Shown here one piece after another: positions 1 to 62,073 of a stretch of 64,000 nucleotides of DNA; within the stretch, counting starts at the first letter, position 1; the number at the start of each line of letters is the position of its first letter. Location: IMG/VR virus record IMGVR_UViG_3300032225_002400, positions 1 through 64,000 of that record; one strand, written 5' to 3'. The notes beneath the pieces are model-generated. The model searched no databases. It saw only the letters and a program-made list of their open reading frames with translations, and was not told the origin of the DNA. The stretch is from a virus (Duplodnaviria > Caudoviricetes). A program made the translations under genes and the position numbers.

Positions 1-37
1 ATATATACTTTATAACAATTTATTATATTAATACATT

Positions 38-61
38 TTAATTAAGTTAATTAATTTTGAT
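38..61 (-). repeat. Inverted partial copy of the 19-bp TTAATTAAAA(A/T)TGATTAA-type repeat
   Basis: Reverse complement ATCAAAATTAATTAACTTAATTAA resembles the array at 7439-7505. Confidence 0.45.
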
Positions 62-529
62 AATAGTTATAATTATTTATTATTTTATTTATTTTAATAA
101 AACATAAGGGGAACACTAATTTCATAAGACAATAACAAAAGAATAAGAACAATAAAAAGAAAGAAGAAAGAAACACTAAACTACCAAAAAGAGAGAGAAG
201 AAAAAAAAGGGCGCACATTAAATATCATACATAACATATAATAGCTTACCATTAAAACTTTAAGATAGTAAGTACCCTATAGTAAACATGAGATGTTTGC
301 AAATGCATTAGAGACACACGGTTAAAGAGTAGTTTGTAAGATATATATTTTATTAAGAAGACTATAAGTTTTAAATCTAGGTATGTCTGGATAATTTCTG
401 TGTATATCTGAGGTATATCTCTAGCATGTCTAGGTGTGATTTAGGGTTAATCTGTGACAGTTTTAGTGGTTTGGAGTAGATTTTACTGTACGTGTAGGTG
501 TAATGTGTAGGTGTGTCCCTGTGTAGCAT

Positions 530-580
530 GCAGGCAGGTATCGGGCAGGCAGGTATCGTGCAGGCAGGCAGGTACTCAGG
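530..580 (+). repeat. Short GC-rich tandem repeat (GCAGGCAGGTATCG-like, about 15-bp period, 3 copies)
   Basis: gcaggcaggtatcg at 530-543 and 545-558; degenerate third copy tgcaggcaggcaggtactcagg at 559-580. Confidence 0.8.
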
Positions 581-683
581 TAGGACATTGAAAAAATATT
601 TTAAAAAAAAGTATAAATAATTTTTTTATATATCAAAAGTTAGTATATTAGCTCTATCAAATAACCATTAAATTAAAAAAACC

Positions 684-875
684 ATGAAAAAACTAAATCT
701 AACGCAAAAAAAAGAAATGTTAGCAAAATTTTTTAAACTCTCAGTATTATTAGGTTACTCATTAGAGCCTTTTATGGGGTGGAGCTTAAGTAAATACAAT
801 TGGGATATAGTTGAAAAAAGAATAAAGTTTTTAAATGAAGCGTATGATAATCCAGAAAATAGATACTACGCTTAA
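684..875 (+). CDS. Hypothetical protein
   Basis: 63-aa ORF, A-rich start context (aaaaccATG), downstream of an AT-rich promoter-like region. Confidence 0.6.
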   Translation: MKKLNLTQKKEMLAKFFKLSVLLGYSLEPFMGWSLSKYNWDIVEKRIKFLNEAYDNPENRYYA

Positions 876-13745: not shown

Positions 13746-13773
13746 TACTTATATTTTAAAAAATAACCATTAA

Positions 13774-18200: not shown

Positions 18201-18290
18201 TCTAGTTGTAAATGCTCTGGTAAATCGTATAAGTATGGTGGAAAAAGTGTATCAGATTATGATATTATAAATAGTATGAATAAAAATTAA
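15285..18290 (+). CDS. Large modular protein 1 (xxGG-delimited; Zn-ribbon, DUF5661-like and 'GNRHSEGG..EMEGGE' modules)
   Basis: 1001 aa; MKKGG x2, MADGG, MAKGG, FASGG separate unrelated modules. Confidence 0.8.
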   Translation: MSMEIKVGDIGIFSGRVDKKAKVLRVDDTYVTYLEIDENKKKYIYLADFKKRFKKEGEGEVKQQNKEIKTKEISDNKKIEKPSKPSYTIVGIYLSKDRTNYEETENLNQKGLLGYRIRYNKEPNMFFGNVNYSLEDLDEAKKRVEYSNENAEKQKEFKKIRDAENKIKREENKIIEKQKLETATKEIIAKPSFLMTLSEYQEKVVPILLQYQKFLRKNSEYLQPADYEGIYQYTYPELEKDFENKTIKGRRFAIGKYQENPLENFKASHYPDDEIVEMNKSFVNKLKNFFTESEIYSLMSKDEYKSNKRAVKRAIDNDTYKNLLESEELTESELQKIADSVDVSIPKKVFSVENVKMKEMQQKFAKLLSDLPTINKEQLNKLIESIKIDFKPLEEEVFIEEKLKYTQKFRKLLEKEKVYVSSLDMTINIWEDLFSYDKTGYDKIKTGTYKTNYYTKQKEEIIDERQYVIGLKFKSNWETLFDKYLKNYTESLKYSFINAIINNFIRITKPIIEIVKIHIELGERGFEGVYRFKFDDGSYFDFKAEAIRAGGYNIQILHLRYITNFENITLADGSKIKGYYNLIENFNIKRMKKGGSLGENIKCVNCGWHWNTNQSEEYDKYVCHKCGFDNTTFYSSQIMKKGGITHEDIKNKTDKYKDMLKRPSNLLKISQMHKVPLFFLQSQLIKGMKVESEHTTREAVSKIIALHHLEEDPRYYIKLEKIEGHIMADGGKVNKIKYEIKIKSQSSKGKEYEKEFYANDILLATTEAKFKGYSTNQYVGYNNALRIEYYSSLNKTGFKTLLGEDIFKNIDFKKYPFYISHFNKLSLKDIKNMIDYTNNEQKMSDSGDTKSIFYKGYKIGDDGMYRRMNTMAKGGELDPDNKAIKSAMTHKAGSAGGLLVGNRHSEGGIKAINKSTNSPIEMEGGEVVITRNAVSDNKKREFEGKMMTNREILSRINESGGGVSFASGGDVPSSCKCSGKSYKYGGKSVSDYDIINSMNKN

Positions 18291-18308
18291 AATTATAAAA
18301 TAAAAATT

Positions 18309-29030: not shown

Positions 29031-30779
29031 ATGGCAAAGAAGAATGTAGTCATCTTTGATGGGGAAGATAAATTTATCAACCCCAAAAAAGTAGTTTATA
29101 GTAAATCAAAAGGACAAGCAAAAAAAGTAGAGTCTTTCAAATCAATGAGAGCTGCTAGTGAAGATGAGCAAAATCCTAGTGATGGAGGAGGTTCAGCAAC
29201 TCAAGAACCTGTAACTCAAGTGGGCGTTCAAAATACTGTAGCTCCACCTGTTGCACCTATTGAAGTACCTTCACAAAATACTATTTCAAATATTCCTTTG
29301 CCTAATGTTACAGAAGTTATTAATGGAAGTGGTTCATCTATTCCTGCTCCTCAATTACCTGAATTTCCTACATTTCCACAACCTGAAGCACAAGTAACTC
29401 CTAGTCCTGTTCCTGCTTTACCTGTTTACGCAACAAGTGATATAAAGGCTACGCCAATATCTAATATTCAAACTAGTACTGTTACAAAAGAAACAGTAAT
29501 GGCTCCTGTTCCTCAATTACCTTCGTTCTCTGCTTCTTCTCCTGTTTCAGGTTTAGGTTTAAGTTTTGGACAAAATGCGACAACAAAATCATGCCCTCCA
29601 GGTTTTAGAGATTATTTTGGAACATGTATTCCTATAACAAACACTCAAGGTGCTTGTCAACAAGGTTATATGAAAGAATACGAAGGTGGTCCTTGTGTCC
29701 CAATTCCTGCTTCAGGTTCTATTGGTGGATGCGCGGCAGGTTATGAATATAAATTAGGTTATAGAAGTGGTAGTTTAACTCCTGAAATGGGATGTTACCC
29801 TATTGGTTCTACTCAAGATATTAATACAGGAAGTAGCACTGGAAAAATTTTAGGTGGCGGTGCAGGAACAAATATCGGCGGCGGTGGAACTGTTCAAGGT
29901 GGTGGTGGTTCTTATGCAGATACTAGTGAAAAACAAGTTGGTATTGGTCAAGGTGGACAAAGTACTGGTCTTACTTGTAATGAAAATCAAATATACGACC
30001 CTAAAACAGGAAGCTGTATGCCAAAATATACACCAGCTCCTGTACCATGTCCTGCAGGTTTTACTGTAAATAAAGCTACAGGTACTTGTATAGAAAGTCT
30101 TAATCCTCAAGATTATAAATGCCCTCCTGTTGATTTACCGACTCCTCCTAAATGTAAAAAATATGCAGTAGTTGGTAAAGATACATTTGGTTGCGATAGA
30201 TTTGAATTAGTAGATGATGCAGCTAATTGTCCTGATGTAATTCAAGAAAAACCTATTGAATGTAAAGATGGTTTAATATATAGTGAAGCGTTAAAAAAAT
30301 GTGTTAATCCAATTGATGAAACTAAGAGACCTCCATTGACAACTCCTGAAGGAACTTGTCCTGTTGGTTATGATTGGAGTATTGCTGAACAAAAATGTAT
30401 TTCAAAATGTGAGGCAGGTAAAACTTATGACCCTGTCAACATGATGTGTGTAGAGCCTACTCCGTATACTCCAAAAACGCCTTATTGCTCTGCAAATCAA
30501 GTTTGGGATGAAGCACAACAAAAATGTGTATTCTCAGGAATAATTACAAAACCTCCTGTTACTTCACAAACTACTACTACAACTACTAAAGCTCCTGAAA
30601 AAGATAGTTTAGGTATACTTCCTGTTGGAGGTGGTACAACTGGTGGAGGTGGTGGAGGTGGTGGAGGAGAAGATACTTCTGCAACAATAGCGAAAAAGAA
30701 TTACTTTTGGTGGTATGTTGGAGGCGCTATTTTAGCAATTTATCTTTATAAAAACTATCATAAGAAGAAAAAAAAATAA
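29031..30779 (+). CDS. Pro/Gly-rich, Cys-repeat surface protein with C-terminal TM anchor
   Basis: Repeated two-Cys units with an aromatic residue (e.g. CPVGYDWSIAEQKC); TM plus HKKKKK. Confidence 0.75.
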   Translation: MAKKNVVIFDGEDKFINPKKVVYSKSKGQAKKVESFKSMRAASEDEQNPSDGGGSATQEPVTQVGVQNTVAPPVAPIEVPSQNTISNIPLPNVTEVINGSGSSIPAPQLPEFPTFPQPEAQVTPSPVPALPVYATSDIKATPISNIQTSTVTKETVMAPVPQLPSFSASSPVSGLGLSFGQNATTKSCPPGFRDYFGTCIPITNTQGACQQGYMKEYEGGPCVPIPASGSIGGCAAGYEYKLGYRSGSLTPEMGCYPIGSTQDINTGSSTGKILGGGAGTNIGGGGTVQGGGGSYADTSEKQVGIGQGGQSTGLTCNENQIYDPKTGSCMPKYTPAPVPCPAGFTVNKATGTCIESLNPQDYKCPPVDLPTPPKCKKYAVVGKDTFGCDRFELVDDAANCPDVIQEKPIECKDGLIYSEALKKCVNPIDETKRPPLTTPEGTCPVGYDWSIAEQKCISKCEAGKTYDPVNMMCVEPTPYTPKTPYCSANQVWDEAQQKCVFSGIITKPPVTSQTTTTTTKAPEKDSLGILPVGGGTTGGGGGGGGGEDTSATIAKKNYFWWYVGGAILAIYLYKNYHKKKKK

Positions 30780-31714: not shown

Positions 31715-32362
31715 ATGTTAGATTCAATATCTTGGGGAAACCCTTTGCAAAAGCATTTGCCTTACATTGAAAAAGATAATCTTACTTTTCTTGAAAAGTA
31801 TTATCCTCAATTAATCAAGTATAGTTTCCCAAAAAACACTTCAAAAGCTACAAGAGAAGAATTAAATCAACTTGTAGATAATATTGAAGTAGCTAAAGCA
31901 AACCCAGAGCATTTAAAAAGATATAAAGCTTATGATAACTCTCTTGTTAAAATATTTGGAGATGTTATTATTGATAATAATTTAGGAGAAAAAGGAGCTG
32001 ATTTAGTAGATAAATTATTTGATGATACAGTCCCTTTAATATTAAAACTTAAATTTTTTTTTCAAAGACCAAGACCGTATCAATTAGCTTATGCTTATAA
32101 ATTAAAACTTTTCCCATTTTCATCTCCATCTGCAGATTCTCCGTCTTATCCTGCAGGACATACTTTGCAGTCTGCATTGATTTGCTATGTGTTAGGTAAT
32201 CATTTTCCTGAAAAATTTGATTATTTCCAAAATTTAGCTAAAGATATAGAGTATAGTAGATTGTTTTTAGGTTTACATTACCAATCAGACAATGATTTTG
32301 CTCTTTACATATTTGATTTAATCATTAGAGATAAGGAATTTAAGGCTAAATATGGTTTATAA
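31715..32362 (+). CDS. PAP2 / vanadium-haloperoxidase-superfamily phosphatase
   Basis: 'KFFFQRPRP', 'PSYPAGH', 'SRLFLGLHYQSD'. Confidence 0.85.
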   Translation: MLDSISWGNPLQKHLPYIEKDNLTFLEKYYPQLIKYSFPKNTSKATREELNQLVDNIEVAKANPEHLKRYKAYDNSLVKIFGDVIIDNNLGEKGADLVDKLFDDTVPLILKLKFFFQRPRPYQLAYAYKLKLFPFSSPSADSPSYPAGHTLQSALICYVLGNHFPEKFDYFQNLAKDIEYSRLFLGLHYQSDNDFALYIFDLIIRDKEFKAKYGL

Positions 32363-33241: not shown

Positions 33242-34399
33242 ATGAGTACAGAACAAAAAATAACCAATGAAGAAGTAAAACCTACTCCAACTAGTGCTAA
33301 TTACAATCCTTTCATGCAACAAGTTAGTGAGAAGCCATATTCTACTATGAATGTTGGAGTAACACAAGACCAATTAAAAGGAGCAATTCCAGAACCAGTA
33401 TTTACTCCATTTACAATTGATTCTAACGAGAATCCATATAATATGTTAGGTGGAGAAGGACAACCAAGTAGTAATTTAGGTTCAAAAAATAATTCAGCAT
33501 CTTTTAATCCAATGATGAATGATATTAATGATGGAGATAAAAAGCTAGGTGCACAACACATGGCTAAATTATTGGTAGATGGTTATGAACAATTACATGT
33601 TTTTGGTAATAAAGCTTTACAAGTACCAGAAAGAAAGATTAGAAAAATGGAACAAGAAGGTCTTATTGACTTATCAATTCCAATTCCGTATGAATATGGT
33701 AAAACAATTACTGCTGGAGAGTTTTTACAAGATTTTAATGAGCAAAATAAAGATGCTTTAACAGTATCAAAAGAATTTAAAAAAGAAGTTACTCCTGTAT
33801 TAACTAGAGTGTTAGAAAAAAGAGGAGCAGGTTTAACCGATGAACAATATTTAGGTTTTTTAGTTGGTAAAGATTTAATTGTAAAATTAGTAATAGTAGC
33901 ACAATTACGTTCTACTATGAATGATATGATTAATGTAATTAAAGACTATACAGAAGCCACAAAAGCTGGAAATGGTGTAACTCCACAACCACAACAAAAA
34001 ACAACTACACAACAACCAGTAACTCCAACACCTACAACATCTGAATATCAATATCAAGAACCTAATCATTCAGCTTCTGATTTTAATTTCCAAGATAATG
34101 AAGTTGTAATGAATAGCACTGTTCAACAAATGCAAGTACCTAGCACAGGTAAAGCAAGAGTTATTGCACAAATTCAAAAAGAAAAGAAATGGAAAAATGA
34201 TTCTGATAAATCAGTTGAAAATTCATCTTACGAACAAGCAATGAAAGAAAGAAAAAATGGAAATAAAAGAGGAAGAAAACCAAAAGATTATATTCAAAAT
34301 GTAAAAATAGATGAACAAGAAATTGCAGAATCAATTATATTAAATGAATCTATTAATCAACCTAAAAAGGAAAAAGACCCTTATTCAGATTTAGATTAA
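33242..34399 (+). CDS. Hypothetical protein
   Basis: 385-aa ORF upstream of the ATPase. Confidence 0.75.
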   Translation: MSTEQKITNEEVKPTPTSANYNPFMQQVSEKPYSTMNVGVTQDQLKGAIPEPVFTPFTIDSNENPYNMLGGEGQPSSNLGSKNNSASFNPMMNDINDGDKKLGAQHMAKLLVDGYEQLHVFGNKALQVPERKIRKMEQEGLIDLSIPIPYEYGKTITAGEFLQDFNEQNKDALTVSKEFKKEVTPVLTRVLEKRGAGLTDEQYLGFLVGKDLIVKLVIVAQLRSTMNDMINVIKDYTEATKAGNGVTPQPQQKTTTQQPVTPTPTTSEYQYQEPNHSASDFNFQDNEVVMNSTVQQMQVPSTGKARVIAQIQKEKKWKNDSDKSVENSSYEQAMKERKNGNKRGRKPKDYIQNVKIDEQEIAESIILNESINQPKKEKDPYSDLD

Positions 34400-34689: not shown

Positions 34690-35511
34690 ATGTCAAGAGA
34701 ACCTATGTTGATGGCAGCGTGTGGAAAAAAAGGAGTTGGAAAATCGTATCAACACATGATTTTAATGAACCAATATGTTCAAGGAGATTATTATAATGGT
34801 GTCAGAGGTAGAAAGTGTTTGATTATGGATGTCAATGATGAATATGGTGTAGGTACTTATTATGTACAAGCTTTATCATTGAAAGATGTTCCATTATTTA
34901 CAGTGCATCCACATATAGAAATAAGAAGAATTAGACCTTTTCATCCAAATGGAACTAGAATGACGTTAGATGAATGGGCTCAAGCTTTATTTTATGTGTT
35001 AAGTAGATTTAGAAATGGTTTATTATTAATAGAAGATGTCAATAAATTTATTGGCGACCATTTACCAAATGATTTAGTAGGCTCAATTGCAACTAATAGA
35101 CATATAGGTTTAGATATTATTCTATCATATCAATCTTTAGGTAGAATTAATACAAAAATATGGGGTAATTTAAACCAATTAAGGTTTCATAAAAATAATG
35201 AAAGTGTAGAAAGACATTCTTTAAAATTTCCTGATAAAGCAGAATTTATGAGAATTGCAGAAATTATGGTTAATAATGAATACGCTAGAGGTAATAATAG
35301 ATACTTTGTTTATGTAGATATGGATGAATCTAAAATTAGAGGTAATATTAGTGATGAATTAAGAGATGAAGCTTTAAATGAATATATTAATGAAAACTAC
35401 AATAATATATTAAAACCTTATTTAGTTCAAAGAAATGGAAGCAAAAAAAAGCATACTGTAGAAACTGCTATAAAAGAAGTAAAAACTAAATTAATTTCAG
35501 CTTACTTTTAG
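34690..35511 (+). CDS. FtsK/HerA-superfamily ATPase, putative A32/P9-type genome-packaging ATPase
   Basis: N-terminal Walker A 'GKKGVGKS', Walker B-like 'LLLIED', 'RH' then 'IILSYQ' (A32/HerA signature); 273 aa, no nuclease domain. Confidence 0.75.
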   Translation: MSREPMLMAACGKKGVGKSYQHMILMNQYVQGDYYNGVRGRKCLIMDVNDEYGVGTYYVQALSLKDVPLFTVHPHIEIRRIRPFHPNGTRMTLDEWAQALFYVLSRFRNGLLLIEDVNKFIGDHLPNDLVGSIATNRHIGLDIILSYQSLGRINTKIWGNLNQLRFHKNNESVERHSLKFPDKAEFMRIAEIMVNNEYARGNNRYFVYVDMDESKIRGNISDELRDEALNEYINENYNNILKPYLVQRNGSKKKHTVETAIKEVKTKLISAYF

Positions 35512-35539
35512 TGTATTTTATTTATTATAATTAATTGAA

Positions 35540-35597
35540 TTGCAATATATTATATTTGCAATGTTAAATCTTTTCAGTATTTTTAAATATATATTTG
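35540..35597 (+). promoter_or_regulatory. Two TAnnTTTG -7 boxes, the first inside an imperfect palindrome
   Basis: TATATTTG at 35551-35558 and 35590-35597; ttgcaatatattatatttgcaa at 35540-35561. Confidence 0.5.
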
Positions 35598-35720
35598 TTA
35601 TTTAACTAAAAATAGTAATTTATTTTAATTAATAAATTTTGATTACTTAATTTTAAACTGTCAATGCTGAATCTGTATTCACAATGGCAATTATTCATAA
35701 AACAATTAAATAGTATTAAA

Positions 35721-35828
35721 ATGAATTTCAAAGCAATCGCAGGACAATTACTAATTGTTGCAGGTGGTGTTGCTCTTTACATGTTGGCTATAAAGCCTAT
35801 GTTAGACAAAGCCAATGTAACTAAGTAA
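35721..35828 (+). CDS. 35-aa membrane peptide between ATPase and capsid candidate (not in track)
   Basis: MNFKAIAGQLLIVAGGVALYMLAIKPMLDKANVTK. Confidence 0.75.
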   Translation: MNFKAIAGQLLIVAGGVALYMLAIKPMLDKANVTK

Positions 35829-35885
35829 TTATAGAAGTAAACGAATTGAAAATTAAATTAATTCAAAAATCAAAATTCATTAAAA

Positions 35886-36587
35886 ATGAGTAGTATTCAA
35901 CGCTATTTACAAATGGCAAACCGTCAAGTAAACGAATCGTTTATTGGCGTAGATGGTTTCGTAGACGATGACATGTATTTTGCAGCTGGAGATAATTTCT
36001 TCGGTGCAGACGGAACAGAAGCAGCTCCTGCTGCTGCAGCTCCTGCAGTTATGCGTTCTCAACCTTACATCTTAACAGTATCTAATGCTTCTAACGCGGC
36101 AGTTACTATTGATGTATTTGGAGCTTATATCTATTTGAACAACGCAGGTTTTTCAGGTGGAAGCTTAACAGTAAGCAACGTAACAATCACTTCAGGATTG
36201 TCTAACGTAACTTATTACAACTTATTGAACCAATCATCTGTATCTCCATTCACAATTGGAAGTACTTTGATTTCTTCAGTAAATGGTACAACTAGCCAAG
36301 TGTTACAACCTTTAACACTTAGTACTTTAGATGCAAATGGTAACCAAGCAACTAAAATCTTAACTCCAGTTATTGACCCGTATCAACAACAAAGTGGTGT
36401 TATTGAATTGAAACAACCATTCAGAATTGATGGTTTTACTAAGTTAACTTTCAGCATTTATGCTTCAAGTTCAGTTCAATTCCAATTCTACCCTTCTGAT
36501 ACTATCAACATCGCAAGAGGTTTAGGTGGTAACGCTGTATCTAAACAATATGGTAGTCCAAAGATTATCAGACCAGCTTCTCGTTAA
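35886..36587 (+). CDS. Putative major capsid protein (beta-rich, jelly-roll candidate)
   Basis: 233 aa, alternating S/T/V/I/F strands; many C-ending codons (ttc, aac, tac, atc) suggest high expression; own promoter and terminator; next to the ATPase. Fold not verified. Confidence 0.55.
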   Translation: MSSIQRYLQMANRQVNESFIGVDGFVDDDMYFAAGDNFFGADGTEAAPAAAAPAVMRSQPYILTVSNASNAAVTIDVFGAYIYLNNAGFSGGSLTVSNVTITSGLSNVTYYNLLNQSSVSPFTIGSTLISSVNGTTSQVLQPLTLSTLDANGNQATKILTPVIDPYQQQSGVIELKQPFRIDGFTKLTFSIYASSSVQFQFYPSDTINIARGLGGNAVSKQYGSPKIIRPASR

Positions 36588-36616
36588 TTCAAGAAGATTT
36601 GGGAAAATATAAAAAG

Positions 36617-36657
36617 AGGGTGTGAGTGTGATTTTATCTTACTCCGCCCTTTTTTTC
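36617..36657 (+). terminator. Rho-independent terminator after the capsid candidate
   Basis: AGGGTGTGAGT pairs with ACTCCGCCCT, followed by a T-run. Confidence 0.75.
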
Positions 36658-36674
36658 ATTAAAATTTACAAATT

Positions 36675-37094
36675 ATGTCATTACCTAGAGTAAATATATT
36701 TAATTACACGGCAGCAGCAAATCCTTATTTTGTTAAAAGTTTAGCTCATAAATATGGTTATGAGTTTGATAAAGACCAAAAATTAGATACTGTATTGCAA
36801 CAATTAGTAACTTATGAAGGTGAACCTATAATGATGGAAATAATTGAGAATAATCCTGATAAAGATTTATTTATGGATTATTTTGAGAAAAAATATGGCA
36901 AAAAAGAAGAAAAGAATAATTCAAATGAATTAGGTGGCGCAAGATTACTTGATACTTATATGAATTTCACAGGACAATTACAAGCTGCACAACAAACTGC
37001 TGAAAATAAAATGATAACAAAAGAAACAAGTGTTATGGTTTTACTTGGTGCAGTACTTATTTCATTCGCAATAATGTTTAAAAATAACAAATAA
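36675..37094 (+). CDS. C-terminal-TM protein
   Basis: 'YMNFTG' motif; TM plus KNNK. Confidence 0.75.
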   Translation: MSLPRVNIFNYTAAANPYFVKSLAHKYGYEFDKDQKLDTVLQQLVTYEGEPIMMEIIENNPDKDLFMDYFEKKYGKKEEKNNSNELGGARLLDTYMNFTGQLQAAQQTAENKMITKETSVMVLLGAVLISFAIMFKNNK

Positions 37095-37095
37095 T

Positions 37096-37755
37096 ATGGC
37101 ACTTTCAGCAATAGAAACTGTAAAAGAATTAATTTCATACTCAGTTGTAACAGATAAAAATGGTTTAGTTAAGTTATTAGAAAGAAATGGTATTCAATTA
37201 CCAAATAATCCTTCTGATAATGAAGTAACTGTTGCTGTTTTAATGGCAAATAACAGAAGTGGTGTTTTCAGAAATGAATTAAAAAAATATTTAGGAGCAT
37301 TAGTTCCAGAAGTATCTAATTACACAGTACAATTAAGTGGAGGTATGAATTTCACTGGTACAGATGATTTTTCTTTTACTGCAGGAGATGAATTTTATAA
37401 TTTAACTGCAGGTCAAGCAAAAAGAGTTACTGATACTAATCCTTCCGGGAAATCAAAAGTGGGAATAGCATTAGCTAGTATAGGTACATTTTTTAAAGAT
37501 AATGTACTTACAAAAGACAATATTAATTCAGGTATACAAATTGGATTAACTAGTTTAGCTAATAAGACTAATGCACAACAAAATGCTGTTACTGCTCAGT
37601 CTTTACAACTACAAAATTATCAAGATACTTTAAGACAACAACTTCCTAACGCTTCAAAAAAATCTAATACTATGTTATATGTATGGATTAGTGTTGGTGT
37701 TTTAGCTGTTGGTGTTTTAGGTTTTGTTTTATATAAATCATATAAAAAGAAATAA
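37096..37755 (+). CDS. C-terminal-TM protein
   Basis: 'GGMNFTG'; TM plus YKSYKKK. Confidence 0.75.
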   Translation: MALSAIETVKELISYSVVTDKNGLVKLLERNGIQLPNNPSDNEVTVAVLMANNRSGVFRNELKKYLGALVPEVSNYTVQLSGGMNFTGTDDFSFTAGDEFYNLTAGQAKRVTDTNPSGKSKVGIALASIGTFFKDNVLTKDNINSGIQIGLTSLANKTNAQQNAVTAQSLQLQNYQDTLRQQLPNASKKSNTMLYVWISVGVLAVGVLGFVLYKSYKKK

Positions 37756-37756
37756 T

Positions 37757-37876
37757 ATGTTAAAAGGTAAAAATTTATTGTTGTTATTAGCAATTGCAGG
37801 CGTATCTTATTATTATTTAGTATGGCAAAAAAGCGCTAAAGATAAAGAAAATGATGCTGCAAAAGCTAAAAAATAA
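37757..37876 (+). CDS. 39-aa N-terminal-TM peptide, MLKGKNL family (not in track)
   Basis: MLKGKNLLLLLAIAGVSYYYLVWQKS... Confidence 0.75.
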   Translation: MLKGKNLLLLLAIAGVSYYYLVWQKSAKDKENDAAKAKK

Positions 37877-37880
37877 AAAA

Positions 37881-38072
37881 ATGATTAATAGTAAAAAAAT
37901 ATTATTAATTGGAGGTGTTTTGGTAATAGCGTATCTTTTATTAAAAAAGAAAAAAAATACTATTGTTAGTGAAAATGGAAAAGAAAAGATTTCGCAGTTT
38001 GACCCTATAAATGTTAAACCAATGCCATGGATAGGTGTTCCAAATTCACTTACTGAAATTAAGATAAATTAA
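37881..38072 (+). CDS. N-terminal-TM protein
   Basis: From ATG 37881: MINSKKILLIGGVLVIAYLLLKKKK. Confidence 0.7.
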   Translation: MINSKKILLIGGVLVIAYLLLKKKKNTIVSENGKEKISQFDPINVKPMPWIGVPNSLTEIKIN

Positions 38073-38073
38073 A

Positions 38074-38208
38074 ATGACTAAAGAGAATAAACAATTATTA
38101 TTAATAGGTGGATTTATATTTGTTTTATATACACTTTATAAGATATATGAAAAGAAATATCAATCAGTTCCTGATTCAGTAGTAATTCCAACAGAATTTG
38201 AAAATTAA
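38074..38208 (+). CDS. 44-aa N-terminal-TM peptide (not in track)
   Basis: MTKENKQLLLIGGFIFVLYTLYKIYEKK... Confidence 0.7.
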   Translation: MTKENKQLLLIGGFIFVLYTLYKIYEKKYQSVPDSVVIPTEFEN

Positions 38209-38235
38209 ATTAAATAACAAACAAAAACTACAATT

Positions 38236-38397
38236 ATGTTAAAAGGTAAAAATTTATGGATTTTATTAGGTGTAGGTGCTGTAGCATACTATTATTTTAT
38301 GATGAAAAAGAAAAAAGATGCTGCTTCTGCTGCTTCTACAACTCCTGCTGTTAAAAACTTTACAGGAGACCATGGTATTTTAGCAAAACAAAATTAA
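38236..38397 (+). CDS. 53-aa N-terminal-TM peptide, MLKGKNL family (not in track)
   Basis: MLKGKNLWILLGVGAVAYYYFMMKKKK...KNFTGDHG. Confidence 0.75.
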   Translation: MLKGKNLWILLGVGAVAYYYFMMKKKKDAASAASTTPAVKNFTGDHGILAKQN

Positions 38398-38420
38398 TTA
38401 GAAATTAAAAAAGTAAAAAA

Positions 38421-38672
38421 ATGTTAAAAGGTAAAAATTTATTAATTATTGCAGGTGTTGCTGCTGTAGGTTATTATTTATATAAAAAAAATCAAGCTGC
38501 TAAAGTAATTGCTCCTTCAACTGCTGCAACTAATTTTACAGGTAATTTAGGTGTACTTAATGCTGATGGCGCACATTTAACTGATAGACAAATTAATAGA
38601 ATTGCAAACGCTAGTCCTGAAAGAGCTCAAAGAATTTATAATAGAGTTTCAAAAAGAATGGGGATTAGATAA
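38421..38672 (+). CDS. N-terminal-TM protein, MLKGKNL family
   Basis: MLKGKNLLIIAGVAAVGYYLYKK...NFTG...LNADG. Confidence 0.75.
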   Translation: MLKGKNLLIIAGVAAVGYYLYKKNQAAKVIAPSTAATNFTGNLGVLNADGAHLTDRQINRIANASPERAQRIYNRVSKRMGIR

Positions 38673-38682
38673 AAATTAAGTT

Positions 38683-39075
38683 ATGACAACTACAAAAAAA
38701 GTACTTTTATACGCAGGGATATATATTATAGGTTATCAATTATGGAAATACTATAGTAAGCCTAAAAGCGTATTAGTAAAAGGTTCTGATGCTGACACAC
38801 CTGAAAAGGTAGAATATAGCACAGGAAAAGAAGGTATGTTAGGTTCTGATGGTTCTTTAGATACAATGATTAATTTAAAGAAGCCCATCTATATTAGACC
38901 TCAAAATTCTATTCCTGATGTATATGATAGAGGTATTGGACAATTTATTAATTGTAGTGGTGGTTATATGAACGCTTCAGGTTTTCATGAAAACTTAGCT
39001 ACGGCTTGTAACGCTAGAACTGTAAAAAAACTTGGCGCTACAAAAATTGATATTCCTATAATACCTCAAAATTAA
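38683..39075 (+). CDS. N-terminal-TM protein
   Basis: TM then 'LGSDG', 'MNASG'. Confidence 0.7.
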   Translation: MTTTKKVLLYAGIYIIGYQLWKYYSKPKSVLVKGSDADTPEKVEYSTGKEGMLGSDGSLDTMINLKKPIYIRPQNSIPDVYDRGIGQFINCSGGYMNASGFHENLATACNARTVKKLGATKIDIPIIPQN

Positions 39076-39085
39076 AATAAAAACA

Positions 39086-39322
39086 ATGGCAGAGGCGAAA
39101 GATATATTAGATAAAGTAAAACAATTAAAATCTAATTCTGAAAGCATGGCTTTGAAGAAAATGAAAGGTACAGTTTCAGGAGCTTTAATTGGTATGGGTG
39201 GTGGCTTACTAATAGGATTTACAAGAGGCTATAATTTAGTCTCTTCTGCGTTTGTAGGAGCTTTACTTGGAGGAGTTATATCTCAAGTTTTATTACCAAA
39301 ATTAGATGATAGCAATGAATAA
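39086..39322 (+). CDS. Glycine-zipper membrane protein
   Basis: 'GALIGMGGGLLIG...AFVGALLGG'. Confidence 0.7.
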   Translation: MAEAKDILDKVKQLKSNSESMALKKMKGTVSGALIGMGGGLLIGFTRGYNLVSSAFVGALLGGVISQVLLPKLDDSNE

Positions 39323-40007
39323 TAAGTATATTAAATTTGCCGCTTTAGCAGCTATTACAGTAGGTGGTTACTTAGTGATTAAAAATCTATTAGGTAAATC
39401 TGTTGGAGTAACAAAACAAGTAGGTGATTCAGAAAGTGGTTTAGATAATGGGAAAGCTGCAGTTTCTAATTACTTCCCTTTAGCTAAAGGTAGCAAAGGA
39501 GAAAAAGTTAGAGAATTGCAGACTATTTTAGTAGGTATTGATGCAAATTCACTCCCTAAATATGGTATTGATGGAGATTTTGGAAGTGAAACTGAAGCTG
39601 CTTTATTTAAGTATTTGAATAAGAAGCAAGTTGATAATCAAGAAGACATAGCTACATTAAATTCTTTAAAAACTACAGCTCAATCAAAAGCTTTAGAATC
39701 TTCAATTAATGCTAATAGAAGTATAACTGCGAATGAAATTATCAATGATTGGAAGCTTAATAATATGAAAAATATATACGCATCTAATGATTTAGGATAT
39801 GTTATTGGTAATTTATCTGCATCAGGTTTAGAATTAAATTCTGTAAATAAATTTGCTAAAAAAGGTGAAACTATAGTTAATGGTTTTGAAATAAAAGATA
39901 TGAAAGTTTTACCTAGTGGTTATATTATGGCTTCTATAGGAACAGGTACTTTAGGATTAGATAGTAGATTTGCTAAATTTAGCCCTTTTGGTGTCATGAT
40001 AAAGTAG
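39315..40007 (+). CDS. N-terminal TM plus peptidoglycan-binding (PGBD-like) domain
   Basis: 'LAKGSKGEKVRELQTIL...IDGDFGSETEAAL'. Confidence 0.8.
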   Translation: MNNKYIKFAALAAITVGGYLVIKNLLGKSVGVTKQVGDSESGLDNGKAAVSNYFPLAKGSKGEKVRELQTILVGIDANSLPKYGIDGDFGSETEAALFKYLNKKQVDNQEDIATLNSLKTTAQSKALESSINANRSITANEIINDWKLNNMKNIYASNDLGYVIGNLSASGLELNSVNKFAKKGETIVNGFEIKDMKVLPSGYIMASIGTGTLGLDSRFAKFSPFGVMIK

Positions 40008-40326: not shown

Positions 40327-40610
40327 TGAAAAAAGATAATTTTATTTGGTGGGTATTAGGAGGCTTTGGAGCTGTTGCTCTTTGGTATTATTATCAAAAT
40401 AATAAAAAGAAAAGTGTAAGTACTAAAGAGTTAGTAGTAGATGTTCTTCAAGAAGAGCAAGATAAGTATAGTACACCTTTTAAAGCTGAGTATAATATTA
40501 TTATGCCTGCTGATTTAGTGTCAAAGAGAGTAAAAGAAAAGGCGGCTGTGTTAACTGCAGGTAGATATGAAATACAGCCTGATAAAGTACAAGCACCATT
40601 ATTTATATAA
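40326..40610 (+). CDS. N-terminal-TM protein
   Basis: 'FIWWVLGGFGAVALWYYY'. Confidence 0.7.
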   Translation: MKKDNFIWWVLGGFGAVALWYYYQNNKKKSVSTKELVVDVLQEEQDKYSTPFKAEYNIIMPADLVSKRVKEKAAVLTAGRYEIQPDKVQAPLFI

Positions 40611-40611
40611 G

Positions 40612-41418
40612 ATGCAGTACAAATTGTGGACAAGATATGAACCATGTATGGTTAAAGTTGTGGTAAAAACAAATTCACCTCAACTTATTGTGTTAAAGGC
40701 ATTTGATGCTACACAAGCCAATACAGTTTTTATGGAAAGGGAAAAAACTATTGATGGAACGCAAGAGTTGTATGTAAGGATGCCATTATCCCCTAGTTCA
40801 ACTGCTTTAGCAATTTATAATAAAAAAAATGGCAACTTGGCAAAAGGTCAAGATAGTTCTTTTGAAGTTTCTCAAATTAAAAAAGAAGATTTGGACATTA
40901 CTTTAGCTAAAACTAAAATGGACAATTCTTTAGTTAGAAATTTTGTTGCTTTTGCTCAAAAGTTTGCATTTAACGCTGGTTGGATTCAAGCTCCAAAAGA
41001 TTATATAAGTACAGTAGGTGCTTTTAAAATAGAATACTTACCTTATATAACAAACAACAAAACTAATGCTAAGATGGCTACACCTGCTCGTATAAGTACC
41101 AAAAATGGTAGAATACAAGTGTCTCAGGAAGCTTTCTTACCATTTACTATACCAATGAGAATGGCAATATTATTACATGAGTTTAGTCATTTTTATTTGA
41201 ATAGTGATATTTCTAATGAAACTGAAGCTGATTTGAACGGACTTACAATTTATTTAGGATTAGGCTACCCTATCAAAGAAGCCTATTCTGCTTTTATAGA
41301 TACCTTTATTGGTTATCCTACTGAGCAGAATAAAAGAAGATATGATATAATCAATAGGTTCATTAAAGATTATATTGAAGAATATAAAATAAAAGATGTC
41401 TACGCAGTAGGCGAATAA
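40612..41418 (+). CDS. Zincin-type metalloprotease
   Basis: 'ILLHEFSHF' (HExxH) then 'ETEAD'; start likely ATG 40612, right after the upstream stop. Confidence 0.7.
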   Translation: MQYKLWTRYEPCMVKVVVKTNSPQLIVLKAFDATQANTVFMEREKTIDGTQELYVRMPLSPSSTALAIYNKKNGNLAKGQDSSFEVSQIKKEDLDITLAKTKMDNSLVRNFVAFAQKFAFNAGWIQAPKDYISTVGAFKIEYLPYITNNKTNAKMATPARISTKNGRIQVSQEAFLPFTIPMRMAILLHEFSHFYLNSDISNETEADLNGLTIYLGLGYPIKEAYSAFIDTFIGYPTEQNKRRYDIINRFIKDYIEEYKIKDVYAVGE

Positions 41419-41429: not shown

Positions 41430-41957
41430 ATGGCAGACAAAGGAGCACTTAGAGTTTATACAGAATTACCATCTTGGGCAAAAGGAGTAGTTGTTGTAGG
41501 TGGGCTTGTTGTAGGTTATTTAGCTGTTACATCTATTTTAAGAGCTATTAAAGCTAAAAAAACAGAGGCTGAATCAAAAGCTGAAATTTCACAAGCTAAT
41601 ACTGAATTAAATACTCAAATAAAATCAGGAAATGGTCCAACAATTCAAAGAAGTCAAGCAGAAGTTATGGCTAATGCTATAGTTGCTGCTTCAAATGATT
41701 GTGGAACTGATGAAAAACAAATTTATGCTCAATTTGATAAAGTAAAAAATCAAGCTGATATATTGTTATTTGTAGAAGTTTTTGGTTTAAGAAAGAAAGT
41801 AAGATGCCCATTTAGTGATGACCCTAGAGAATCATTTTTTAGTTCAGATACTCCTCCAATGTCATTATCTGCTATGATAAATTCAGAATTAGATACTACT
41901 GAAATTCAAACTTTAAATAATAAATTAGCAACAAAAGGAATTAAATATAAATTTTAA
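41430..41957 (+). CDS. N-terminal-TM protein
   Basis: 'WAKGVVVVGGLVVGYLAV'. Confidence 0.7.
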   Translation: MADKGALRVYTELPSWAKGVVVVGGLVVGYLAVTSILRAIKAKKTEAESKAEISQANTELNTQIKSGNGPTIQRSQAEVMANAIVAASNDCGTDEKQIYAQFDKVKNQADILLFVEVFGLRKKVRCPFSDDPRESFFSSDTPPMSLSAMINSELDTTEIQTLNNKLATKGIKYKF

Positions 41958-41960
41958 TAT

Positions 41961-42575
41961 ATGGCACTTTTTGAATCAGAAAAAACAAGAATAACAGAAG
42001 CAAGTAATAGTTATGCACAAAAATATCCTTTAAGTGAGAATATATCTAACTTACAAGCTAGTGTTAATGCAGCTAATGTTGATTTAGTTAGTTTAAGAAA
42101 TGAACAACCTGAAACTGCTGGAGGTAAGCGTGTAAGACAAAGAAACATTACTGCTCTATCTAATAGAATTATGCAGCTTCAAAATAAAATTAAAGATTTA
42201 CAAAGTGGTATGAGTGGAAGTGATATTATTAAAATTGCTTATCCTTCTTACTCTACTCTTCCAAAAGTAACTAGTCAAACTATTTTAGGAAGTACACCAT
42301 ATAGCTTTCAAATACCTATGTTGAATATGCCAAATAGCGTTAAGAATATAAAAAAATCAAAACCTGCTTCAAAAACAACTGATACAAGAGATTTAGCTGA
42401 CAGTATTGCAAATAACAATGGTATACCTGTTGCAGGAGAATCAAATGGTGCTGTAGGTGATTATCCTCCTCCTTATGGAGTTCAAAATACAAATACTAAA
42501 TCAATACTATTATATGGTGGTTTAGCGGCAATAGTGGGAATTACAGCTTATTTCATGTTTATAAAGAAAAAATAA
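41961..42575 (+). CDS. C-terminal-TM protein, paralog of 42580-43044
   Basis: Both share 'KYP.SE...L...G.KRVR.RN..AL..RI..L'. Confidence 0.75.
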   Translation: MALFESEKTRITEASNSYAQKYPLSENISNLQASVNAANVDLVSLRNEQPETAGGKRVRQRNITALSNRIMQLQNKIKDLQSGMSGSDIIKIAYPSYSTLPKVTSQTILGSTPYSFQIPMLNMPNSVKNIKKSKPASKTTDTRDLADSIANNNGIPVAGESNGAVGDYPPPYGVQNTNTKSILLYGGLAAIVGITAYFMFIKKK

Positions 42576-42579
42576 TTAT

Positions 42580-43044
42580 ATGGCATTATTAGGACCAACA
42601 GGAAAAAAAATAGCAATAGGAGCAGCAGTAGCAGGTGGTTTAACACTTGCAGGAATAGGAATTGCTAAAAACGCAGAGCAAAAAAGAGTTTTAGCTGCTG
42701 AAGATGATATGAAGAAGAAATATCCTTTTTCAGAAAATTGTCTTGAAATGCAACATATATACAAAACTGCAAAACTTACTTTAGCTCAATTAGAAGCTGA
42801 ATCAGGTGGAGATGCAGGTGCTAAAAGAGTAAGAGCAAGAAATACAGCAGCTTTAAAGAAAAGAATTATAGAACTTGAAAATTATATACCAAATTTAGAT
42901 TGCTCAAAGGCAGTTTTAGCTCCTGATGGGTTACCACAAGGTGCTGTTGCTCCTGCATCTAATGTTACTAAATATTTGTTATATGGCGTTGCAGGTGTGA
43001 TATTATTGGTGGTATTTTCTAACTTAATGAAGAAAAAAGACTAG
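42580..43044 (+). CDS. TM protein, paralog of 41961-42575
   Basis: As above; hydrophobic at both ends. Confidence 0.75.
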   Translation: MALLGPTGKKIAIGAAVAGGLTLAGIGIAKNAEQKRVLAAEDDMKKKYPFSENCLEMQHIYKTAKLTLAQLEAESGGDAGAKRVRARNTAALKKRIIELENYIPNLDCSKAVLAPDGLPQGAVAPASNVTKYLLYGVAGVILLVVFSNLMKKKD

Positions 43045-43046
43045 TT

Positions 43047-43721
43047 ATGGCAATAGACATGATTGAAAATAATGAGCTTGGTGCCCTTGCAAAAAGCAGA
43101 TTAGGTGATACTAAGCAGTTTACTAATGAAAACCAAAAGTATAAAAACTTCTCAGGTAATGAGGATGTTTTTCAAAGAGTAGACATTAATGAAGAGTTTG
43201 AAAACCTTTTTGGAAGTAAAACATTCAAAGATAATAAAGCAAAAGCTACTAAAGAAGCTGAAGATTTTGTTGCAGCTTTACCAAAAGGTAATTGTGATGA
43301 TATTGAGAAAAGCTTGGGAAAACTTGCTTTATATATTGAAGCTCAAACAAAAGAATTAGGATTAGCTAAAGGCCATGTTACAGAATACCCTAAAAATAGA
43401 TTAACAGTAGCTAGAAAAGCAGAAGCTGATTTAAAAATGACTCAATCTAATTTAGATTGTTTAAATATACAAGCTAAAGCACAATCTGAAGCTAAAAAAG
43501 CTGAATTGATAAAGACTTTAACTAATGTTTCAGAAGCTAGTGTTCAACAAGCGAAAACAGACCTTTTTGGTACTCCTACAGGACAACCTTTGTACGCACC
43601 TGCTACAACTGACCAAGGAGCATTAAGTTCTGTTCAAAATGCTCTTGTTTCTAACAAAAATTTATTAATTTATGGTGGTATTGGAGTAATTGTATTAATT
43701 TTATTATTAAGAAGAGATTAA
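43047..43721 (+). CDS. C-terminal-TM helical protein
   Basis: 'NFSG'; 'NLDC' shared with 42580; TM plus RRD. Confidence 0.7.
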   Translation: MAIDMIENNELGALAKSRLGDTKQFTNENQKYKNFSGNEDVFQRVDINEEFENLFGSKTFKDNKAKATKEAEDFVAALPKGNCDDIEKSLGKLALYIEAQTKELGLAKGHVTEYPKNRLTVARKAEADLKMTQSNLDCLNIQAKAQSEAKKAELIKTLTNVSEASVQQAKTDLFGTPTGQPLYAPATTDQGALSSVQNALVSNKNLLIYGGIGVIVLILLLRRD

Positions 43722-43723
43722 GA

Positions 43724-44212
43724 ATGAAATATTTAAAACCTGCATTAATAATTAGTGGACTTGGCATAATTGGTTATGCCCTTTTCCGTTATTATAAGAA
43801 GCAAATAGACTTTGTAAAAGATATTCAATATACCATTTCAGGGTTAAAAATAGTAAACATTTCAAAAGAAGATGTTACACTTGAAATATTTTTAAAAGTT
43901 TATAACGCATCAAATGTAGAAGCTAAAGTAACTGAGATTTATTTAGATGTTATGATGAATGGCACTAAAGTAGGTTCTATAAATGAATCAAATGAGTTTA
44001 CAATTATGCCAACACAGACTACTGATGTAAGCTATAAATTTAGTTTTAATCCAAGTTTAGTAATAAAAAATATTGTTAATATTTTAACTTTAACTGTTCA
44101 ATTGAAAGATGTTGTAATAGTAGCAGATGGGTATATGAAAGTAAAAAGTGGTTTTTTATCAACAACAATTCCATTTACATATCAAAACACATTAAAAAAA
44201 CTTTTAAAATAA
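43724..44212 (+). CDS. N-terminal TM plus LEA_2-like beta-sandwich
   Basis: 'L.VYN.SN..A....I..DV..NG..VG', 'I.P...T.V'. Confidence 0.7.
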   Translation: MKYLKPALIISGLGIIGYALFRYYKKQIDFVKDIQYTISGLKIVNISKEDVTLEIFLKVYNASNVEAKVTEIYLDVMMNGTKVGSINESNEFTIMPTQTTDVSYKFSFNPSLVIKNIVNILTLTVQLKDVVIVADGYMKVKSGFLSTTIPFTYQNTLKKLLK

Positions 44213-44926: not shown

Positions 44927-45679
44927 ATGAGTAGTACATTTTTAGGAGGAGATAGTTTTAGTTTATTTAGTGGTGGCTCAGGAGGAGGCACTAGTGGAGT
45001 TGTTGGTTCTAGTGGAACTAGCGGTCAAACTTATGGAACTAGTGGAACTAGTGGTCAAGGTACAAGTGGAACAAGTGCAACAAGCGGCACAACAGGTACA
45101 AGTGGAGTAACAGGAACTTCAGGCTTAACAGGAACTTCAGGAACAAGCGGTGTAACAGGCACAAGCGGAACAAGTGGCGTAACAGGAACTTCAGGAACAA
45201 GTGGTATGGGAACAAGTGGTACAAGTGGCTCTTCAGGTTCTAGTGGAAATGGTACTGCAGGAACAAGTGGTGGAACAGGTACGGCAGGTACTAGTGGAGT
45301 AAGTGCTGCAGGAACAATAAAAAATTATCAAGTAGTAATAGCTACATCAAATGGTTCTTTAAGTAGTGTAACAAGTGCAACTGACCCTGTTGGAGCAAAT
45401 CTAATAGGTGCTGCAGGATGGACATTCACCATAGATAGTAGTACTCAATTTACTATAACACATCCTTTAGGAAATGTTTTTATTAGTGCTTTTACTAATG
45501 GTTTAAATGGTTCTAATGTTCTTACAAGAACTTTTTCAGGAAATACAACAGGAAACTATAGTATGTTTCAAAATAGTACTTTTACATCTATCATTTTTTA
45601 TAGTTTATCAGGTACATTAGCAGGATATGCAACAGTTGGTTTAGGTACTTTAACAATTAATTTTCAAGCAAAAGTTTAA
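44927..45679 (+). CDS. Fibre-like protein with Gly-Thr-Ser collagen-like repeats
   Basis: About 100 aa of G-X-Y (GTS/GSS/GVT), then a beta-rich C-terminal head. Confidence 0.75.
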   Translation: MSSTFLGGDSFSLFSGGSGGGTSGVVGSSGTSGQTYGTSGTSGQGTSGTSATSGTTGTSGVTGTSGLTGTSGTSGVTGTSGTSGVTGTSGTSGMGTSGTSGSSGSSGNGTAGTSGGTGTAGTSGVSAAGTIKNYQVVIATSNGSLSSVTSATDPVGANLIGAAGWTFTIDSSTQFTITHPLGNVFISAFTNGLNGSNVLTRTFSGNTTGNYSMFQNSTFTSIIFYSLSGTLAGYATVGLGTLTINFQAKV

Positions 45680-45686
45680 ATAATGT

Positions 45687-52232: not shown

Positions 52233-52266
52233 AGGTAGGGCTAAAATCCTACCTTTTTTATTTTAT
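52233..52266 (+). terminator. Rho-independent terminator overlapping the 3' end of the convergent gene
   Basis: AGGTAGG-GCTAAAAT-CCTACCT-TTTTT; contains the minus-strand TAG at 52241-52243. Confidence 0.8.
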
Positions 52267-53317: not shown

Positions 53318-53321
53318 AATA

Positions 53322-61401: not shown

Positions 61402-62073
61402 ATGGCAGAAGTACAAGCGATAGCATTAACGCAGGAACAACTACTGCAATTTCAAATAGTAAATAATACAAATTTTGCTATTCCTAACATTCCTTTTTTA
61501 ACACAGAATGATAGTTTTAATGCTACAACTCAATATCAATATACACTTCCTGCTAACTTAAATATACCAACAGTTATTACACCTGTAGTTACTACTTTAC
61601 TAACACCTGCATTACAAACTGTAATTCCAATAAATGTTACTACAGGAACGCAATTGACTTATGAGCAAATAACTACATCAATAAGTACTAATAATTATAG
61701 TTCTAATTTCTTTTATGCTCAATCTGTAAATTGTAATCAAGTAGGACAAGTATTTACTTATAATGATTCAGATATTGCAGGTAATGGTACAGTAAATGCA
61801 CTACCATTTACTTTAGACCCATATCAAAGACAATGCGCTGTTTATTACTATCCGCCTGAAAATCTTGTTAATTTCAATGGAACTAGTTCATTAAATTTTA
61901 CTATGCTTCCAGATACTACATTAAATTTAAAAATATTTTCAAGTAGCACTTCTCCATCACAAATATTAAACGAAATAACTGGATATAAAGATAATACATT
62001 TACTGAAATAGAAACAGCTTTAGGGTCTGATGTATTTACTGATTATTGTAACTATTTAATTGATACAGAATAA
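61402..62073 (+). CDS. Paralog of the 35886 capsid candidate (second or minor capsid protein)
   Basis: 'LTYEQI...Q..Q....D..GN......DPYQRQ...F.G...L.F' aligns with 'VTYYNL...Q..Q....D..GN......DPYQQQ...I.G...L.F'. Confidence 0.6.
   Translation: MAEVQAIALTQEQLLQFQIVNNTNFAIPNIPFLTQNDSFNATTQYQYTLPANLNIPTVITPVVTTLLTPALQTVIPINVTTGTQLTYEQITTSISTNNYSSNFFYAQSVNCNQVGQVFTYNDSDIAGNGTVNALPFTLDPYQRQCAVYYYPPENLVNFNGTSSLNFTMLPDTTLNLKIFSSSTSPSQILNEITGYKDNTFTEIETALGSDVFTDYCNYLIDTE

Follow-up and report, generated by a model that had tools for sequence, protein, structure and literature searches.

Here we examine a candidate morphogenesis module in IMG/VR virus record IMGVR_UViG_3300032225_002400, a single contig of 75,744 bp with about 28% G+C. 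The window (i.e., the whole stretch of DNA presented here, 64,000 nucleotides) is the first 64 kb of this contig. Near its middle, three consecutive genes encode an ATPase of the FtsK/HerA superfamily, a very short membrane peptide and a 233-amino acid (aa) jelly-roll protein whose gene is termed here the coat gene; a terminator closes this triplet, beyond which lies a run of mostly small open reading frames (ORFs) rich in predicted membrane proteins. The positions of these and other features are given in Table 1.

Table 1. Features of the module and its surroundings (positions are those of the window)
Feature	Position	Strand	Evidence or remark
Probable left inverted terminal repeat	1..696	.	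Inner 57 nt (640-696) recur inverted at the contig end
PAP2-family lipid phosphatase	31715..32362	+	Pfam PAP2, E = 3.5e-8; kept upstream of the module in loci L006-L011
385-aa conserved protein with low-complexity N-terminus and basic C-terminus	33242..34399	+	No Pfam or PHROG match
273-aa FtsK/HerA-superfamily ATPase of B204/P9 type, candidate genome-packaging motor	34690..35511	+	Motifs, model, profile comparison
Two TAnnTTTG (Bacteroidota -7-like) boxes in the gap between ATPase and peptide genes, candidate promoter	35551..35597	+	Boxes at 35551 and 35590
35-aa membrane peptide with a single pass, encoded in the gap between ATPase and coat gene	35721..35828	+	Gene calls in relatives; hydrophobicity
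233-aa protein, candidate major capsid protein: N-terminal helix, acidic/Ala-rich arm, single jelly roll (~57-221)	35886..36587	+	
Intrinsic terminator after the coat gene, hairpin plus U run	36611..36656	+	Folding energy versus shuffles
139-aa membrane protein with C-terminal anchor, conserved beside the coat gene	36675..37094	+	
Run of eight small ORFs, including MLKGKNL... paralogues	37096..39322	+	Six pass the hydrophobic-helix threshold, two borderline
233-aa protein with N-terminal membrane helix and weak endolysin similarity	39306..40007	+	
283-aa protein with HEFSH zinc-metalloprotease motif	40567..41418	+	Kept throughout the lineage, the Raineya provirus included
Four more membrane-anchored proteins and a LEA_2-domain protein	41430..44212	+	
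223-aa diverged jelly-roll-core paralogue, candidate vertex/spike-base protein	61402..62073	+	BLASTP E = 2e-4; profile E = 8.8e-10

The packaging ATPase candidate

The first gene of the triplet encodes a protein with a Walker A motif (GKKGVGKS, residues 12-19), a Walker B-like motif (LLLIED, residues 111-116) and a third motif, NRH..D.....Q (residues 136-148); within these three motifs, G12, K14, G15, G17, K18, E115, D116, R137, H138, D142 and Q148 are invariant among 28 homologues having identities down to 51%. An AlphaFold model built on 28 homologues (predicted local distance difference test (pLDDT) 89; predicted template modeling score (pTM) 0.86) consists of a RecA-like core (residues 1-220) followed by C-terminal helices, without any extra (nuclease) domain. 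When this model was compared with solved structures using Foldseek, ranks 1 through 14 were all occupied by B204, the genome-packaging nucleoside triphosphatase (NTPase) of Sulfolobus turreted icosahedral virus (STIV) and STIV2 (E = 1e-8). The STIV2 protein was also the best match in a second structural comparison, where it was followed by DndH (16.0), HerA (15.7) and VirB4 (15.2): B204 stands about 2 Z units above these cellular ATPases and its match covers nearly the whole length of the protein, at an aligned identity of only 16-17%.

Sequence-level comparisons are less telling. Of the packaging ATPases tested using hhalign, that of P23-77 matches best (probability 71-74%, E = 3e-5, over about 150 columns), with the P9 ATPases of PM2 and PRD1 reaching probabilities of 20% and 10%, respectively. 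Profile searches yielded a weak match to Zot-like ATPases in PHROGs and a match to HerA in the PDB (E = 0.022) that is confined to the Walker A region, and some relatives of the protein are recorded with PF01935/DUF87. Only one other ORF in the genome, encoding a 154-aa kinase-like protein, contains a Walker A motif. The ATPase assignment is strong, the nearest solved relative being a viral packaging NTPase rather than a cellular translocase; the motor would work in the manner of the B204/P9/A32 class of packaging ATPases, to which the protein probably belongs. An earlier note on this DNA, made from the letters alone, had described a short FtsK/HerA ATPase having Walker A, Walker B-like and 'RH...hhh.Q' motifs and no nuclease domain, and had placed it with the packaging ATPases of PRD1 (P9), PM2 and P23-77; the invariant motifs and the single-domain model agree with that description, and the placement is strengthened by two structural methods and by the gene order described below.

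One might suppose either that the module serves a non-viral mobile element whose HerA/VirB4-like ATPase transfers DNA rather than packaging it, or that the particle is pleomorphic, enveloped or otherwise non-icosahedral. We regard this as quite improbable: B204 outranks the cellular ATPases over nearly the full length of the protein; the genome encodes endolysins, fiber proteins and DNA-modification enzymes typical of lytic viruses; neither relaxase nor secretion-system genes were among the results of the general scans; and the gene order is that of icosahedral membrane viruses.

The jelly-roll protein and its paralogues

The product of the coat gene was modeled using 72 diverse homologues. 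The model (pLDDT 88, exceeding 95 in the core) begins with an N-terminal helix and a disordered acidic, Ala-rich arm, and ends in an eight-stranded β-sandwich spanning residues ~57-221; as modeled, the fold is a single jelly roll. The top structural matches are the cowpea mosaic virus (CPMV) S protein, satellite tobacco mosaic virus (STMV), grapevine fanleaf virus (GFLV), chain 6q5u_O of PR772 (presumably the penton protein P31), TNF and nucleoplasmin; Foldseek returned the CPMV small subunit, the STMV coat protein, TNF and concanavalin A. These matches are generic, no relative stands out, and they include many viral capsid and vertex-protein structures; the fold by itself cannot separate a capsid protein from a fiber head or a cement protein.

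At the sequence level the protein belongs to no Pfam or PHROG family, a profile search of the PDB returned only noise, and the ESM Atlas was uninformative both for it and for the paralogue at 61402. A tblastn search of 50,697 phage records with both the ATPase and the 233-aa protein found no match (at E = 10, a single spurious Bacillus phage appeared). Comparison with PRD1 P5 using hhalign yielded nothing; for P23-77 VP16 and VP17 the hhalign probability is below 1%, and neither is among the structural matches listed. The family is nevertheless large in metagenomes, where clustering at 90% identity gives 797 clusters and clustering at 50% gives 564.

The coat gene has the hallmarks of strong expression. 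TTC encodes 8 of its 13 Phe residues (14% genome-wide), AAC 12 of 16 Asn residues (19%) and ATC 7 of 17 Ile residues (8%), and its G+C content at third codon positions is the second highest among all ORFs of at least 90 aa. The terminator hairpin has a folding energy of -21.8 kcal/mol (z = -4.1), a stability that none of 200 shuffled sequences equaled. Evidence for a dedicated promoter is mixed: two TAnnTTTG boxes precede the membrane peptide, but the full Bacteroidota -33/-7 pattern is missing from this gap and is not enriched, and sigma-70-like matches occur at chance level. Hence, of what the earlier note had proposed for this gene, the β-rich product, the biased codons, the terminator and a single rather than a double jelly roll are all corroborated (structure prediction and structural searching, suggested there as a check, did return a jelly roll), whereas the promoter of its own stands only insofar as the two boxes are present.

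Each of five genomes contains one ATPase and one conserved, full-length copy of the 233-aa protein (profile E = 1e-82 to 1e-88), along with one to five diverged copies comprising the jelly-roll core only, some of which lie beside glycosyltransferases and spikes. One such paralogue occurs here; its stop codon overlaps the start of a downstream gene for an 800-aa Thr-rich protein. Certain relatives encode tandem proteins of 397-456 aa with two copies of the core (G004:C1:17384-18406, i.e., locus L029, and P0261, P0378 and P0382), whose genes adjoin glycosyltransferases and not the ATPase; these two-copy proteins are natural fusions of single into double jelly rolls.

An alternative to which the generic structural matches lend some weight is that the particle is tailless and membrane-lined, yet the 233-aa protein is a vertex, spike-base, lectin-like or cement protein, with the true capsid protein (possibly a double jelly roll) encoded among the unassigned ORFs. 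The matches do include PR772 6q5u_O and PM2 2w0c_L, both of which we take to be vertex or spike proteins, as well as fiber heads of the TNF/C1q type, and the additional paralogues, with their occasional spike and glycosyltransferase neighbors, fit this alternative too. We consider it unlikely, however: there is exactly one highly conserved full-length copy per genome, located where PRD1 and PM2 place their capsid gene; this gene carries the strongest expression signals, namely codon bias and a terminator of its own; and no ORF of at least 200 aa matches a capsid family. From these considerations we infer that the 233-aa protein is probably the major capsid protein.

Conserved gene order, membrane proteins and host

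The coat gene follows the ATPase gene in eight loci (L006-L014), among which identity to the ATPase ranges from 95% down to 32%. In six of the eight diverged loci the gap between the two genes encodes a hydrophobic peptide of about 33-57 aa, and in the most distant locus the peptide retains recognizable sequence similarity (…AGVALY…KPML…). For the peptide of the window, the ORF listing takes an ATG farther upstream (35664) as the start, but genes called in relatives have the 35-aa form, the length that the earlier note had assigned to the membrane peptide.

This layout matches that of three viruses having internal membranes. In PRD1 the order is P9 ATPase, gpi, P20 (42 aa), P3 capsid protein, P22 and small membrane proteins; in PM2 it is P9, P7 (34 aa), P2 capsid protein, P3, P4 and P8; and in P23-77 it is ATPase, ORF14, VP15, VP16, VP17 and small structural proteins. 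The 35-aa peptide is placed here as P20 is in PRD1 and as P7 is in PM2.

Downstream, the likeness extends to a concentration of membrane proteins. Of the 21 plus-strand ORFs at 35.6-44.5 kb, 15 lie above the hydrophobic-helix threshold, with another three borderline, as compared with 36 of 105 elsewhere; many of these proteins carry a C-terminal anchor. Within this region, at 37757-38672, are paralogous membrane peptides of 39, 53 and 83 aa that start with MLKGKNL and continue into a Gly/Ala/Tyr-rich helix.

A Raineya (Bacteroidota) genome contains a distant relative of the module, on a scaffold of 590 kb. The ATPase there shows 32% identity, hhalign recognizes the coat homologue (E = 5.5e-20), and the same HEFSH protease is present. 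The module belongs to a one-directional gene block of about 38 kb, apparently an integrated provirus (L014, L043 and L044; MAG scaffold, ~470-511 kb), whose last gene encodes a tyrosine integrase and adjoins tRNA-Leu, a housekeeping oxidoreductase coming next; neither a terminase nor an HK97 capsid protein was matched within it. It also encodes an amidase, a C5 DNA methylase and a Tad2-like anti-defense domain. The coat profile matches 2 of 401 Bacteroidota genomes, so that proviruses are rare among those searched; further matches, in bins of unrelated phyla, are taken to be binning errors.

A bacterial host is supported by the peptidoglycan hydrolases (a GH19-type endolysin with E = 1e-64, a glucosaminidase anchored in the membrane by its C-terminus and an endolysin of the peptidase type), and we count RecT, a T4-like alpha-glucosyltransferase, MazG and a thymidylate-synthase-fold enzyme as further support. 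Among the 111 genes of at least 60 aa, a Shine-Dalgarno core lies upstream of only 2, versus 8.6% of random windows. Scarcity of such cores is typical of Bacteroidota. Because of this scarcity and the distant relative found as a Raineya provirus, Bacteroidota are a plausible host group, as the earlier note had proposed.

Probable genome termini and the search for tailed-phage genes

The final 57 nt of the contig (G000 75688-75744) are the exact reverse complement of window positions 640-696. The 640 nt to the left of this segment are non-coding and contain purine-rich and GT/GCAGG-repeat tracts. A relative, G002, has a 114-nt inverted end repeat of like pattern, implying a repeat of about 900 bp, and two independent contigs (G001 and G003) start and stop within a few hundred bases of the matching positions. 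Such a short inverted copy is what remains when terminal repeats of this kind, some 700 bp long, are collapsed during assembly. Together, the end repeats and the co-terminal contigs suggest that the genome is linear, about 76.4 kb long and essentially complete, with inverted terminal repeats of about 700 bp; a genome of this form would also suit a nuclease-free packaging motor. In PRD1, too, the genome is linear and bears inverted terminal repeats. A six-frame search with PF03175 revealed no protein-primed polymerase; a 247-aa protein considered as a 'minimal PolB' has neither a Pfam nor a PHROG match and was set aside.

Across the entire contig, all ORFs of 200 aa or more were compared with PHROGs, and no family of terminases, portals, capsids, tail tubes, sheaths, tape measures or baseplates was matched. 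Six-frame searches with PF03237, PF03354, PF04466, PF05065 and PF04860 (Terminase_6N, TerL_ATPase, Terminase_3, Phage_capsid and Phage_portal) likewise found nothing in this genome, nor in four relatives (84, 84, 75 and 102 kb; completeness is rated at 90-100% for two of them), although very diverged forms could escape these profiles. The failure to find terminase, portal, HK97 capsid and tube or sheath genes that had been reported for the window extends to the full 75.7-kb contig, which the earlier note had suggested searching, and to relatives of 75-102 kb. Of the two findings that the note had named as contradicting it, tailed-phage genes of this kind elsewhere on the genome and a fold other than a jelly roll for the 233-aa protein, neither was obtained.

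The particle suggested by the module

The jelly roll, the B204-like ATPase, a gene order like that of PRD1, PM2 and P23-77, the enrichment in membrane proteins and the failure to find tailed-phage genes are best read together, in line with the large, tailless, membrane-containing virus envisaged by the earlier note: we think it fairly likely that an uncultured bacterial virus, with Bacteroidota as its probable hosts, uses the module as its morphogenesis core and forms a tailless icosahedral particle with an internal membrane. In such a particle, an outer shell of the 233-aa single-jelly-roll protein would enclose a vesicle studded with some 15-18 virus-encoded single-pass membrane proteins. 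The ATPase would dock at one vertex, where the 35-aa peptide may help to anchor it in the way that PRD1 uses P20 and P22, and would fill the preformed particle with a linear genome of unit length (about 76 kb, inverted terminal repeats included), so that no terminase nuclease would be needed. The jelly-roll paralogue at 61402 and the fiber-like proteins probably form vertex and spike structures.

Several considerations weigh against this interpretation. The ATPase has no Pfam match at E = 0.01, and for the 233-aa protein no sequence similarity was found to the capsid proteins P3 and P31 of PRD1, P2 and P1 of PM2 or VP16 and VP17 of P23-77, nor to any ORF of SSIP-1, the virus discussed below. 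PHROG families of tail fibers and tail spikes are matched, at 44927-50618 and 59844-60344, by a 1643-aa protein with collagen-like repeats and a tailspike-like C-terminus and by proteins of 250 and 166 aa. Finally, CheckV estimates the completeness of the contig at 66%.

The last two points are those expected if the virus were a member of the Caudoviricetes, the tailed phages, with genes for terminase, portal and an HK97-fold capsid that are too diverged to be recognized or lie off the contig, and three ORFs of 620-1007 aa without assigned function might seem to offer room for such genes. To this we attach very little credence. Fiber and spike families are the sole tail-like matches in the genome, and fiber or receptor-binding modules occur on tailless viruses too. 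No terminase, portal or HK97 match was obtained either here, among ORFs of at least 200 aa and in six frames, or in the large relatives, and the sole P-loop ORFs are the B204-like ATPase and the 154-aa kinase-like protein. Moreover, the contig ends look like real termini: the inverted end repeat and the co-terminal contigs cast doubt on the CheckV figure, and the apparent completeness of the genome weakens the argument that essential genes lie off the contig.

Relationship to known viruses

The tailless, membrane-containing virus proposed here differs from each characterized group in some respect. PRD1 (Tectiviridae) and PM2 (Corticoviridae), both of the Bamfordvirae, have genomes of 15 and 10 kb and double jelly-roll capsid proteins, as compared with about 76 kb and a single jelly-roll candidate here. 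STIV and STIV2 (Turriviridae), the source of the best structural match to the ATPase, are archaeal viruses with a double jelly-roll capsid protein; their genomes are 16-18 kb. In P23-77 and other Halopanivirales (Helvetiavirae; Matshushitaviridae and Sphaerolipoviridae), single jelly-roll coat genes come just after the ATPase gene, as the candidate does here; these viruses, however, have two adjacent capsid genes and genomes of 17-31 kb, whereas here one such gene lies beside the ATPase and a diverged paralogue is found 25 kb away, so that the hallmark of two adjacent capsid genes after the ATPase is missing. The genomes of sphaerolipoviruses are linear and carry terminal repeats (PMC12643093).

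The largest described tailless membrane-containing bacterial virus that we checked is SSIP-1 (Salisaeta icosahedral phage 1), whose genome, at 43,788 bp, is about 0.6 times the size of the genome here and is circular. Its host, Salisaeta, is related to Bacteroidota. SSIP-1 encodes a giant structural protein, gp43 (6,960 nt), and two capsid protein types are reported for it (PMC6356626). Considered as a relative, it was rejected: hidden Markov model, BLASTP and hhalign comparisons with all 57 of its ORFs matched only the Walker A stretch of gp40.

Judged by sequence, the lineage would fall outside the PRD1, PM2 and P23-77 families, its plan being nearest to PRD1 and PM2 in gene order and to P23-77 in the single jelly roll and the ATPase match; literature searches found no description of it. 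A broader proposal, which we advance only tentatively and hold to be somewhat less probable than not, is that this is a new high-rank lineage in which a B204/P9-type motor packages linear genomes, about 76-102 kb in size and bearing long inverted terminal repeats, into membrane-lined shells, a single jelly-roll protein unconnected by sequence with any known capsid family making up the shell, and in which some relatives possess tandem fusions.

Other features of the genome

Upstream of the ATPase, the 385-aa protein might, as a guess, be a scaffold or DNA-binding protein. The 283-aa HEFSH protein is a candidate maturation protease, going by its motif; its Raineya homologue has a weak SprT-like Pfam match. 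Three adjacent ORFs at 15285-23201 (1001, 620 and 1007 aa), with Pfam matches to DUF5661 and DUF5824, contain 20 [ML]xxGG motifs (e.g., MAKGGE and MADGGE) versus 13 elsewhere in the proteome and are thereby 12.7-fold enriched (Fisher p = 7e-12). In sequence they look like polyproteins cut at Gly-Gly, recalling the processing seen in adenovirus and African swine fever virus; Pfam scans found no adenain/Ulp-like cysteine protease.

Two proteins resembling peptidoglycan hydrolases are membrane-anchored: the glucosaminidase (23213-23752) has a C-terminal helix and the endolysin-like protein at 39306-40007 an N-terminal helix. By analogy with PRD1 P7 or PM2 P5, these could possibly be virion-associated entry enzymes. 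A 582-aa Pro/Thr/Gly-rich protein (29031-30779) consists of repeated Cys-bounded modules, a poly-Gly linker and a C-terminal membrane anchor, and matches Peritrophin-A (CBM_14, chitin-binding; E = 6e-8).

Many glycosyltransferases (GT9 heptosyltransferase-like, GT1/GT4 and others), together with methyltransferases and a polysaccharide deacetylase, are encoded at 52241-58002 (minus strand), at 11488-15015 and at L001 2545-6442; this glycan-building set is unusually large for a phage and possibly serves virion glycosylation. The region 4301-7417 encodes the T4-like alpha-glucosyltransferase (PHROG E = 5e-74), the MazG pyrophosphatase and the thymidylate-synthase-fold enzyme, a set that suggests glucosyl-hydroxymethyl (hypermodified) pyrimidines in the viral DNA.

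Implications

Tailless membrane-containing bacterial viruses are known with genomes of 10-44 kb, and large genomes of prokaryotic viruses are taken to be those of tailed phages. If the interpretation favored here is true, then PRD1-type architecture in bacteria reaches 76-102 kb and is not limited to small genomes; the genome described here is about 1.7 times as large as that of the largest such bacterial virus checked. The lineage would, moreover, be widespread, with hundreds of protein clusters in metagenomes, and its capsid protein family would lie beyond the reach of present virus-detection tools, as the CheckV estimate for an apparently complete genome illustrates. These genomes provide material for studying the way in which a small FtsK/HerA motor copes with DNA five times as long as the PRD1 genome, and for studying the origin of double jelly-roll capsids: if the broader proposal above is true, the tandem fusions may be a snapshot of an independent transition from single to double jelly rolls.

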